Below are positions 44,845-59,267 of a stretch of 64,000 nt of DNA, piece by piece. The number at the start of each line of letters is the position of its first letter. The first letter of the stretch is position 1. Source of the DNA: Hydrolagus affinis (lineage: Eukaryota); NCBI GenBank assembly GCA_012026655.1, contig JAAILG010001142.1, positions 1 through 64,000 on the forward strand, given 5' to 3'. The notes beneath the pieces were generated by a model, which ran no database searches, was not told the DNA's origin, and was given only the letters and a program-made list of their open reading frames with translations. Made by a program: the position numbers and the translations under genes.

Positions 44845-45261
44845 GCAGTAGTATTAATTTCTGTCTATAATGAAATGTTTAAATTAATATCTGGCCTTTA
44901 ACACCTGATATATGGTTTTCCTCATGCTTCTGGTTTCACATATCAATTATTGCTTAAGCAAGAGAATTTTGCTAGATGTTTAAATAGGAAAACGAACGTT
45001 TAAATTGTGAGGCAAGTCTTTTTTGGAGGCATTGAAATGTAAAAAAAACACTGCTGGGTGAAATGGTTAAAGTAAATGCTTTCGACCCACATTTGTTCAT
45101 TCCGCTTGCATATTCTCATGAGAACCCAGTTTTGTTTTCTGGTGAGGAATGTAGAAAATAGGATGTGGCTACAAAAATGACAAGGGAGCATATCTATTTA
45201 TATCTGTCCCCGTTTACAGTTAGCCGTGTGCCTTCATCGTATCCCCACTTGCTCATTTCAG

Positions 45262-55238: not shown

Positions 55239-55339
55239 ATGACAAAGAAGAAGGCATTCTGGGGAGTATTCTTCTGCCGAGTTTTAAGATAAGTCCAGTT
55301 TTACCCGAAGATCATATCAACCGAAAATATGCATTCAAG
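55239..55339 (+). CDS. PLEKHA5: PLEKHA5 coding exon (PH domain), 101 nt
   Basis: tttttttcag / gttagt; (D)DKEEGILGSILLPSFKISPVLPEDHINRKYAFK. Confidence 0.96.
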
Positions 55340-56380
55340 GTTAGTGAATTTCATATGATATGGCTCCTTTCTATATGAAATATGCTGTCATTAAAAAGCC
55401 ATAAGTGAGGTTTGTTCAAATTGCAATTCGCATTCATCCAAATATTTACTTGCCCAGATTTTGATTTTTTTTAGACCATCTGTTTTGAAGAGATTTTCCT
55501 GGTTACTTTACTGGCTTCCTCAAGATGTTTTATTTCTGTATCTACCAAGGTACCAGAAACAAATGAAGTAATTTCAGAAATATTTTCCTAAATTTTAAAC
55601 TTTTATTGAATTATTCATAGAAATTAATTTTTTTCAAAAAAAAGTGCAACGTTTAACTTGTTTTCATTGTCTCGTTTACAAATATTTGAAGGAACTAATA
55701 ACTGATTGTCACATTGAGGTCAACTGATTGAGATTCCACCTTCTTTGTCATTTTCTTTCTTTCTGTTTTCAACATCCAACCATATATCTGAGCAACTGGT
55801 GGCCTTTTTGTGGTGTTTCAGAGCTGCTGTAAATACACTTAAAGCAACAAGGCAAGTATGTTTATGTTTGTACTATGAATGTATAGAGAAATGGCAGTTT
55901 TGTGAAACCAGCTTAAAGTTTAAGCTTCCATTAGATTCCCGTTACTGCAAGAGAGGGAGGGGACCAGAGCGGGTGGAATCAGGATAGGGAGAGAGTATTA
56001 GAGTGGGTGGAGGCTCATATGGAATTCACTGGCTTGAATTAGTGGAGCCAAATGGCCTGCTTTAGTGCTGTACAGTCTATAATTTGGTTTCTGCTTTGCA
56101 GCTTGGATTTTTGTTTTTACAAAAGGTTAAACATTTAATATTTTCTGGGAGAGTTGGATATTTTATATTAGAAGGATTAACCTAAAATGCTGGATTTATT
56201 CCAGTGGCACAAAAAGCTCACTGGCGTTTACTGCGGCAGTCAATAATCAATGTAACTGAGCATTTAAAATGTTTGGTCTCCATTTTGATGTGATTGTGGT
56301 GTGGTAACTATATATTTTTCTTTTCTCCTTTTTCTTGCAGGAGTCATGTTCCCTTAATAACGACTGTCATTTCTAATCAG

Positions 56381-56496
56381 GCTGCTCATCCAAATATGCG
56401 GACTTATTACTTCTACACGGATACAGCCAAGGAAATGGAGTCCTGGATGAAGGCTATGATTGAAGCTGCCCTTGTTCAAACCGAACCTGTGAAGAG
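56381..56496 (+). CDS. PLEKHA5: PLEKHA5 coding exon (PH C-terminal helix), 116 nt
   Basis: ttctaatcag / gtgaaa; AAHPNMRTYYFYTDTAKEMESWMKAMIEAALVQTEPVK(R). Confidence 0.95.
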
Positions 56497-57809
56497 GTGA
56501 AATTGCTATTTGATTTCCAAAGAAAAAAAATCATAAATCTAGCGCCAAGTATAGAAGATGTCAGTTGTTTCAAGTGCAATCATGACTTATCAGATGGGGG
56601 GCTTTGCACGGTGGCAGAGTGCTGCACTCAAAATCGTGAGGCCAGAGTTGAACTCCCTGCGGTTATTACCATTCAAAGTAGATTGCCCTCAAAGGGTGAG
56701 ATAAGTGAGCTGTTAGCTTCGCCAATCCCTGAGAGGATGCCCTCTGGCCGGAAAGAGCGGAAACATTAGCAAAGCCAATTGCACTTGTGCATCTTGCTGT
56801 TCCTGATTCAAGTGGCATTCGAGGCAATGCTGACTCTCCCAGCCTGAAACAGGAAGCATAGTCACAAATGGAATCGAGTGGCAGTCAGGCGGAAAATAGG
56901 GATTTTATCTTCAGATCAATGGATAACATCATTTGATACTTTATTAATAAGGAAATGTTAATCAATGCACATGTAGATTTTGAATTCCTCATAAGAATCC
57001 AGTGTTTAGCCCTGTTTAAAACCTTTGAGTTAGGTTGACAGTGGAGAAACAGGATTTCGCTGAAACTTAATCTTGACTTGAGATGAAGCGAATTTTCCAC
57101 TCACTTGTTTTATATTTAATTTTAAGCTGTGGACAATCTTTTAGAGTTGAGCATGTAATTTGTAATTTCCATCAACCTCAAACTTGCCAGTGATGCAAAA
57201 CAGATTTTTTTTAGTTAGCTTCATGAATACTTCAAACGCTTTCTGGTGGAGCTGAGTGGGAAACGCAAATGCAAGGACTTTTGTATATCACAAAGCCACC
57301 CACTATACTCTCTATAGATCTGCTAGGATAAAGCAAAGACCCCAAATTAATTCTAAAACGGTCTCCAAATTGCTTGCACTCTTCATCGGGAATTGAACTC
57401 AACTCCCAAAGAAAGACAAGCTTGTAATGTTTAAAGTGGACATCCTCCTGACATGAAAGGCAATATATAAATAAATTTTGTTATTATTGTTGTTTCATTA
57501 AGTCAGATTTCTGTACACATGGACTTCTGTACACAGCCATGTGATCTGTGGCCATGATATGTATGTCTTGAGAGTTAGAATTTTATAGACCCACCTATTA
57601 CCTTATAACAGGTGCTGTAACTGGTAACATAAAGTGTTTACAAGTGTAGTATAAAGCAGTGGCTGTTGTTGTTATACCGCATGGGGGACATTTGTGGCCT
57701 CTTTCCCTTTGATCTACTGGATCTTAACAGACGTGCGGCTCTGTACCTCTGATCTCTATTTGCGATATTAGCTGTGATTTACATTACCTCTCACGTTCTT
57801 GCTTTCCAG

Positions 57810-57815
57810 CGACAG
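57810..57815 (+). CDS. PLEKHA5: Candidate 6-nt microexon (CGACAG) of PLEKHA5
   Basis: tctcacgttcttgctttccag|CGACAG|gtaagg; frame-preserving in a phase-2 intron; TGC inside the pyrimidine tract. No transcript evidence. Confidence 0.5.
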
Positions 57816-58763
57816 GTAAGGGAGTATGATTAAGAGGCCAGGTTATCTCAGCTTCCGTAAAGTAATCTCTGTTTTCAGTTCAGTTTAATGCAATCATTGT
57901 TTCACAGCTTCTTTGCTCTTCCTGTACATTAAGTCCCTCGTCTCCTCTTGGCAATTGCCACAGTGGTTTGATTGAAATTGGGAGCTCACAATGCAAACCA
58001 GTGTCCCTTCCCCCCTGTGGTGCAGTGATCTGGCGAATCAGCCTTGAGTAAGACAATTGTTGTAATTGTGGACCACACAAAAAAATGACTAAACCACATT
58101 CATTTAAGATGTTGACAGTAACTTTGTTTGTCAGCTAAAATAAATATCCCAATTTTACAGTTCTGAGTCTCTTCCATTGCTGAAGTCTTGTGTCCTAATA
58201 CTATGGAATGCCGAGTACTGGGGCATGACTGTCCAGGCAATCTTGATTGTTTTTCCAGAGAGAGAGAAAGAGAGATAAACATAATTTGCGAGCACAAGGA
58301 CCTCTCAAAGATGTGTGATGAGAGGACGCTGCTTCCCACAATAGTGTATCAGATTGCAGAGACTCAGCTGTCACAATGAATGAGAAAGACAGCTGTTCGA
58401 GGTCTTAATCCTAATTTGTCTACAACACAAATGGGTTGCATGGGTTGCATTGATGAACATTGTGAATGTGGACTTTTATATCTTTCTGTTATACCACATA
58501 TAAGGATCCCGAAAATCGACAGTTCAGTGTGCAAACAAGCCAATCCACTTTTTTTTGTCTGTGTGTGTGTTTTAAATGTTGCCTGTGGATTTATTTCTTT
58601 ATTTTAAGATATCAAGTACTAGTGCATGAATTTGTTCCACTATTGCTAGTGTGATGTGTGTGTGTGTCTCTGTGGTGGGTGGGGGGGCGCACCCTGGATC
58701 AAACGTCATTGGGAAATGCTGCCTGGATGAGAAACATTCACTTGCTCTGTCTTACACCAACAG

Positions 58764-59267
58764 GATCGAAAAAGTAAAATCTGAAAATTTGCCCCTACAA
58801 GAGGCTAATAACCATATTGTAAATCCCAAAATGTTAATGAAACCTGAAGCTTCGAACCAGAAAAGTAAAGATCCTACTTTAAGTCTCCAAACAATAGACA
58901 ATAGTAACCTGAGTCACGCTGACAAATATGGTTTTGACAAAGACAGACTGGACAAGCCTTTGACTAAGATTAATAGCATCAATTTGCACTCAACCAAATT
59001 AGAAAATCCAAATGTGGTGTCAAGCAAAGGTACAAGCAGCATGCAGGCTGGACAGTACAAACCTACTCGTGTGAACGGTTCAACAAATTCTGCAACTTGT
59101 CTGGCTGGTGCTATCAGTGCTCCTGTGGATGAAACGGACGCAGGAAGAGAGAGGCTGGTTTTCCAAAACAGCAATGGAAGGGGAATGCAGAGGACTAATT
59201 CTATGGTGCAACTTGAGCAATGGGTGCGAACGCAGAAAGAGAGGGGACAAGAGGATGAACCCAGAAG
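58764..59267 (+). CDS. PLEKHA5: PLEKHA5 large post-PH coding exon, 504 nt, phase 2-2
   Basis: accaacag / gtagga; IEKVKSEN..ADKYGFDKDRLDKPLTKINSI..MQRTNSMVQLEQWVRTQKERG, conserved PLEKHA5 motifs. Confidence 0.93.

Follow-up and report, generated by a model that had tools for sequence, protein, structure and literature searches.

A six-base exon-like site behind the PH domain of chimaera PLEKHA5 is probably an unused look-alike of a neural microexon

A PLEKHA5 intron of the chimaera Hydrolagus affinis contains six bases, CGACAG, placed between an acceptor-like and a donor-like sequence, which an initial annotation had proposed as a neural microexon dependent on SRRM3 or SRRM4. Our analysis favors the view, with a probability of roughly 70%, that the intron is an ordinary one and that these bases form a pseudo-exon, a look-alike that is not used. 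In the RNA sample examined, the PLEKHA5 intron was spliced out as one piece. A look-alike of this kind would have arisen by chance, through a run of pyrimidines resembling an acceptor and a word resembling a donor ending up with six bases between them. Exons of 6 nt do not reach the length that normal cross-exon definition needs, and with neither a strong distant branch point nor a spacer at hand, the spliceosome would pass over the six bases in all tissues, so that the protein would retain Lys-Arg after the PH domain.

The window, that is, the whole 64,000-nt stretch of DNA analyzed, is the start of contig C1142 of the host genome assembly (G000), and all coordinates follow its numbering. PLEKHA5 is a cell-junction adaptor gene. 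All gene-named proteins among the 120 matches listed were PLEKHA5 or PLEKHA5-like. Among the matches listed, the protein encoded by the exon at 58764–59267 was 90% identical to PLEKHA5 of Callorhinchus milii and 47–60% identical to the proteins of sharks and rays. The C. milii protein P0122 maps exon by exon and in order, from the window to contigs C9094 and C23074 (tblastn-like match), and the best structural match of protein P0121 is PDB 2DKP, a human PH domain. Judged by its best matches and its PH domain, the host gene is PLEKHA5, a WW-PH adaptor. The matches listed and the exon order on P0122 thus agree with the gene name given in the initial annotation, and the nearest protein among these matches, from C. 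milii, points by its identity to a holocephalan, in agreement with the cartilaginous-fish lineage that it had proposed. Contigs with PLEKHA7-, PLEKHA6- and PLEKHA4-like PH exons (paralogues) also exist in the assembly; these names, like those of GIT1/GIT2, PUS7L and SRRM4, are assumed from Pfam matches and the human proteins. The features of the locus are as follows.

55239–55339, + strand: PLEKHA5 exon, mid PH domain; matches P0122 and is joined to 56381 in 5, 19 and 29 reads
56381–56496, + strand: PLEKHA5 exon closing the PH domain, whose last two bases open an Arg codon (phase 2); RNA joints and P0122 match
56497–58763, + strand: host intron, 2,267 nt, GT..AG, phase 2; skip joint in 4 + 6 + 17 = 27 reads of runs X2–X4
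57772–57809, + strand: AG-free stretch and candidate acceptor; AG at 57808–57809, 14 of 17 pyrimidines at −20 to −4
57800–57802 (−10 to −8), + strand: TGC (UGC), read directly; a motif linked to SRRM3/4 in the available part of 10.1101/2024.09.17.613571
57810–57815, + strand: candidate 6-nt exon CGACAG, which by sequence and translation would add Ser-Asp
57816–57821, + strand: candidate donor GTAAGG, agreeing with the consensus at 6 of 7 non-GT positions; best donor-like site of the intron
58764–59267, + strand: 504-nt PLEKHA5 exon after the PH domain, a low-conservation linker; identity to C. milii, read depth 10–35

Both flanking exon boundaries (56496 and 58764) are supported by RNA joints. 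In the C. milii protein, the PH domain occupies residues 168–263 (Pfam), and the match to human 2DKP runs up to residue 270. The host-intron junction falls at residue 274/275, which is 11 residues past the Pfam domain and 4 past the 2DKP match. The site does therefore lie directly after the PH domain, as first described, in a linker 4–11 residues past the domain end.

The described layout of pyrimidine tract, AG, CGACAG, donor and TGC was recovered by direct reading. Like SRRM3/4-dependent neural microexons, the candidate has AG and GT at its ends and a strong 5′ splice site; genuine PLEKHA5 donors score 4–6 on the same scale (one of seven left out). Its length lies within the microexon range of 3–27 nt, is a multiple of three and brings in no stop. 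Translation across the junction confirmed the claim of a phase 2 intron and an in-frame Ser-Asp: the frame stays open with or without the six bases (0 stops), and Lys-Arg becomes Lys-Ser-Asp-Arg upon inclusion. Upstream of the AG are two weak branch-point-like words, TTTAC with its A at 57781 (−29) and CTCAC with its A at 57793 (−17), and a TCTC at 57789–57792. The surroundings had been called non-repetitive, and indeed the 201 bases around the candidate match only themselves in the assembly in a search that skips very common words. Elsewhere in the host intron, positions 57437–57494 hold a short, highly repeated element found on >1,000 contigs, to which hundreds of reads align, and tRNA-like SINE copies, recognized by eye, recur across the window. 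RNA folding of 57730–57870 was not unusual (z = −0.45), and counts of YCAY and TGCATG near the candidate did not exceed those in the rest of the intron.

RNA evidence came from three raw-read runs of one sample (X2–X4) and was accompanied by a contig set (X1) whose sequences continue through the introns. About 27–30% of the reads of each run aligned, and the threshold for a joint was 3 reads per run. The RNA source is a very close relative of the chimaera, since the 504-nt exon shows four differences common to X2–X4 and X1, with two more in X1 only. The joint from 56496 to 58764, which skips the candidate, was found in 4, 6 and 17 reads. Joints into or out of the candidate, or its inserted letters, were not found in X2–X4 at 3 or more reads per run, and read depth over 57666–57939 was 0–1.1, the same level as in the remaining intron. 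Constitutive use of the candidate is excluded by these RNA data.

Two exon-like sites elsewhere in the assembly were used for comparison.

L018:8554–8534 (contig C2280), − strand: DCTN4 21-nt exon-like site; CTAAC at −46, three TGC
L017:5570–5596 (contig C1241), + strand: GIT1-like 27-nt in-frame exon-like site; CTAAC at −46, TGC at −19

In zebrafish, dctn4 carries a neural microexon of 21 nt that is conserved, and git1 a 27-nt event (PMC12626424 supplement file 6, as far as available). The first site is likely, by gene, length and signals, the counterpart of the dctn4 microexon, and the second is likely that of the conserved git1 microexon. In the same three runs, the DCTN4 site was skipped in 11, 23 and 12 reads (46 in total), and no inclusion joint was found for it in X2–X4. 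Since this control is skipped, the sample would be one without the neural programme, apparently a non-neural tissue, and the RNA is silent on neurons. The 27 skipping reads, with no inclusion joint, favor a look-alike, and they are also what would be expected of an exon skipped outside neurons; that the DCTN4 control is skipped as well counts against a look-alike and in favor of a neural microexon, which would show the same skipping.

Fewer reads span the downstream junction than the upstream one (27 versus 53). We considered hidden inclusion reads as the cause and rejected them: five constitutive DCTN4 joints already span a range of 37–79 reads, and the relative differs at two bases 33–34 nt into the downstream exon, which costs short overhangs. 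The last six bases of the intron differ from the candidate at one position, and an inclusion read could align there with one mismatch; the joint expected from such misplacement was absent from X2–X4. A conservation signal in X1 was likewise rejected. Positions 57712–57863 are unchanged in X1; with a divergence of only about 1% (24 changes) across the intron and six longer unchanged stretches within it, however, the unchanged segment is no evidence. At the preceding intron, a long pyrimidine run within 56310–56380 ends in an AG at 56339–56340, 40 nt before the RNA-used acceptor at 56381 (53 reads). No joint to this upstream AG was present in the RNA runs, and its use would break the frame.

The acceptor of the candidate departs from the typical architecture of neural microexons. 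According to the available part of 10.1101/2024.09.17.613571, SRRM3/4-dependent microexons have stronger branch point and pyrimidine signals that lie farther from the AG, a bipartite UCU/CUC...UGC enhancer fills the gap before the AG, a UGC lies between branch point and AG in 74–79% of dependent exons, and highly sensitive microexons have a more compact UGC architecture. In human, the branch point of neural microexons lies at a median distance of 45 nt, compared with 34 (PMC12871342). At the DCTN4 and GIT1 sites, pyrimidines make up 20–21 of 25 bases at −45 to −21 and 10 of the 17 bases adjoining the AG, whereas the candidate has 15 of 25 and 14 of 17, with an AG at −40. A simple yTnAy word search, used in place of SVM-BP, found neither CTAAC nor CTGAC in its AG-free zone, and the words at −29 and −17 fall short of the human median. 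A distant strong branch point and a displaced pyrimidine tract, typical though not strict traits of the class, are thus missing from the candidate, whose tract abuts the AG. Its donor is better than those of both comparison sites. With two comparators, the candidate acceptor looks like an ordinary one that happens to hold a TGC.

The comparison covers two exons, neither with inclusion reads here, obtained from two of the seven genes tried. The PUS7, EMC1, HOOK and EXOC1 loci were rejected as further comparators, being fragments or other family members in which no exon could be assigned, and no 6-nt exon was found in the GIT2-like intron that was read. Pfam detected two SRRM_C (eMIC) domain matches in the assembly, L002 (C122898) and L003 (C8682), which is in keeping with a microexon; L003 ends in a Ser/Arg-rich terminal exon, which we take to resemble that of SRRM4.

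How often such a pattern arises by chance was estimated with a strict definition: at least 13 of 17 pyrimidines, an AG-free tract, a TGC at −15 to −5, a length of 3–27 nt divisible by three and a GTRAG donor, rules that were fixed after the candidate had been seen. When the intron was shuffled 2,000 times, the pattern appeared in 0.7% of the versions; shuffling the window gave 0.225 occurrences per 64 kb. A genomic background drawn from other contigs (40 pieces of 10 kb each, 798,200 bases, both strands) contained 1 match, or 2 with a looser donor rule. Resting on these 1–2 matches, the background rate is 0.003–0.006 per intron of 2,267 nt or 0.08–0.16 per 64 kb, and the look-alike rate is 1.3–2.5 per Mb per strand. 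The lone strict match in the background (L028:7303–7320, + strand, contig C700) is 18 nt long with a TGC and a GTAAGT donor; no host gene was seen in the surrounding 10 kb.

Donors as good as that of the candidate numbered 232 in the background, or 0.66 per 2,267 nt. A TGC at −15 to −5 was present at 105 of 674 acceptor-like background sites and at 2 of 12 constitutive acceptors (2 of the 12 read one base off). The TGC at −10 is therefore a weak point in favor of a microexon, and how common the motif is at ordinary acceptors argues against one. On the window's + strand, the candidate is the sole TGC-bearing match of its class, and the − strand has none. A second acceptor–donor pair in the host intron, at 58026–58047 (22 nt, TGC, GTAAGA donor), would shift the frame and had no RNA support in X2–X4; its presence shows how easily such pairs arise. 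The pattern is unusual for one intron, and its rarity on that scale (0.003–0.007) together with the kept frame counts against a look-alike. It is not unusual for a genome scan, which would meet many, and a 1.1-Gb genome would hold many hundreds of intronic look-alikes.

Related proteins were taken from the best 120 or 150 matches with up to 15 members per cluster, a set in which teleosts and mammals are thinly sampled. Of 212 listed proteins from the first search and its clusters, 210 reach the end of the PH domain, and no insert at the junction was found among them. An insert was present in 0 of 99 listed chondrichthyan proteins from 14 species, 19 of them from C. milii, and in none of the listed proteins of birds, crocodilians, squamates, coelacanth and sturgeon. 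A Lys-x-Asp-Arg insert was absent from the 543 proteins compared, and in a 50%-identity library none of the 12 proteins with a PLEKHA5-type PH end, among the best 150, carries Ser-Asp. With regard to conservation across jawed vertebrates, the orthologous intron DNA compared was that of the one relative diverged by about 1%. Short-read gene models often miss 6-nt exons, so absence from the proteins is weak evidence.

A six-residue insert exactly at the junction is present in four mammalian-type proteins: P0218 and P0219 (whale), P0340 (seal) and P0352 (guinea pig). Human P0341 and rat P0376 do not carry it. The initial annotation had named a short alternative exon at this junction in human PLEKHA5; this holds for mammals, through the four proteins, and not for the human protein P0341 itself. 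P0340 and P0219 diverge right after the insert, which suggests that it is a cassette exon. The mammalian insert resembles the candidate in its junction directly after the PH domain, in being alternative and in keeping the frame. It differs in its length (18 nt versus 6) and unrelated residues, and it is outside the SRRM4 inclusion list in the available files of PMC7935315. Homology between the two was rejected, as the best coding stretch in the chimaera intron matches 3 of 5 residues and has no splice sites. The insert nevertheless counts against a look-alike, as it indicates that the site tolerates and uses short exons. At another junction, in window positions 45230–45260, a pair of additional residues occurs in almost every shark and ray protein but is missing from a Heptranchias isoform (P0134) and from C. 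milii. The last six intron bases in the chimaera would encode such a residue pair; sharks and rays may therefore have an additional acceptor, located six bases upstream, that is absent from the chimaera.

PLEKHA5 has a conserved neural splicing programme, which also counts against a look-alike. In zebrafish, 708 neural exons include 246 microexons, many microexons being lineage-specific (PMC12626424, in the part available). Four plekha5 exons of 54, 81, 120 and 168 nt (DreEX0056205–0056208) are given in supplement file 6 of that study, in the available portion of which no plekha5 microexon appears among the 708. They depend little on SRRM3/4 (dPSI_eMIC −1 to −19), and human counterparts are HsaEX0048254 and HsaEX0048257–0048259 (both PMC12626424, same portion). 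The brain-type PLEKHA5-L has 32 exons as opposed to 26 (PMC12066752, available text). In the chimaera, PLEKHA5 exons of about 40, 18, 27 and 60 codons at L004 and L005 (C9094, − strand) match these long zebrafish and human neural exons. The long exons belong to the same gene as the candidate, but they are 54–168 nt in length, lie far downstream, are present in public gene models and show little dependence on SRRM3/4 (PMC12626424, in part).

In the 18 of 19 supplement files available for PMC7935315, the SRRM4 inclusion list has no entry for PLEKHA5, while it does contain the 6-nt HOOK3 exon HsaEX0030349, and PLEKHA5 is flagged MICROEXONS FALSE. The gene was also not found in the available supplements of PMC7821500 (8 files, whose tables may give coordinates only), PMC12868881 (1 file) and PMC9303857 (12 of 18 files). 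Literature searches linking PLEKHA5 with microexon/micro-exon or SRRM4, and searches for conserved 6-nt shark microexons, found nothing relevant. A human PLEKHA5 'exon 10' (PMC10548223) and a mouse event (PMC3041816) could not be placed at the junction from the available parts of these papers.

The stronger of the two alternatives, which seems to us unlikely, is that the site is a genuine neural microexon dependent on SRRM3/4, probably one confined to holocephalans or cartilaginous fishes. In neurons, SRRM3/4 would bind the UGC at −10 and assist the loading of U2AF and U2 at the acceptor, with U1 occupying the strong donor. Inclusion would insert Ser-Asp a few residues past the PH domain, within the flexible linker, where the basic Lys-Arg patch might gain a negative charge and a phospho-serine. 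In its favor are the in-frame 6 nt, the donor of 6/7 and the UGC preceded by TCTC, a layout like that of the bipartite enhancer (10.1101/2024.09.17.613571, available part), the rarity of the pattern per intron and the mammalian insert, as well as the compact UGC layouts of highly sensitive microexons and the numerous lineage-specific microexons of zebrafish cited above. On the other side, inclusion evidence of any kind is absent, down to the chondrichthyan proteins listed, and neither the available zebrafish neural list nor the other vertebrate proteins listed contain a counterpart. A probability grid that combined assumed priors of 0.3–3% per intron, an assumed sensitivity of 3–20%, the look-alike rate measured above and, optionally, a penalty for negative evidence gave values of 0.01–0.67 for a real microexon, most cells being <0.3.

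Use of the donor at a low level or in another tissue, yielding either a rare 6-nt exon or a longer frame-breaking exon that would lead to nonsense-mediated decay, is less likely still. In its favor, no donor-like site in the intron is better, several AGs lie upstream, the exons of 44 nt (from 57772) and 85 nt (from 57731) that would use the donor at 57816 shift the frame or contain an in-frame stop, respectively, and the steady-state level of mouse Plekha5 is NOVA-dependent in one table row of PMC3552424, but the available passage of that paper names no Plekha5 exon, the upstream acceptors are weak (9–11 of 17 pyrimidines), and the intronic read depth is at background with no joint to or from the site in X2–X4.

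We therefore return to the unused look-alike as the preferred reading and consider what each outcome would mean. The candidate shares with the SRRM3/SRRM4 (eMIC) microexons of jawed vertebrates, such as the 6-nt HOOK3 exon (PMC7935315, available files), its 3–27 nt size, kept frame, strong donor, UGC near the acceptor, skipping in apparently non-neural RNA and position in a linker beside an interaction domain; events of 6 nt are also given for zebrafish git2a and dock9b (PMC12626424 supplement file 6, in part). It differs from them in the absence of a strong distant branch point. If used, the candidate would work like an SRRM3/4 microexon that tunes the linker beside the PH domain. It is doubtful, though conceivable, that chimaeras or all cartilaginous fishes gained an unannotated 6-nt neural microexon and mammals independently an 18-nt exon in the same intron. 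Were this true, a short switch directly behind the PLEKHA5 PH domain would have been gained repeatedly. A real exon would be a new case in a well-known class, with two lineages carrying different short exons at one PLEKHA5 junction, and hence a testable case of repeated microexon birth with no new mechanism. If the six bases are a look-alike, as we think probable, the combination of a UGC with a good donor and an undisturbed frame would be insufficient to call a microexon in a genome scan, and the look-alike rate obtained here would be a usable yardstick.
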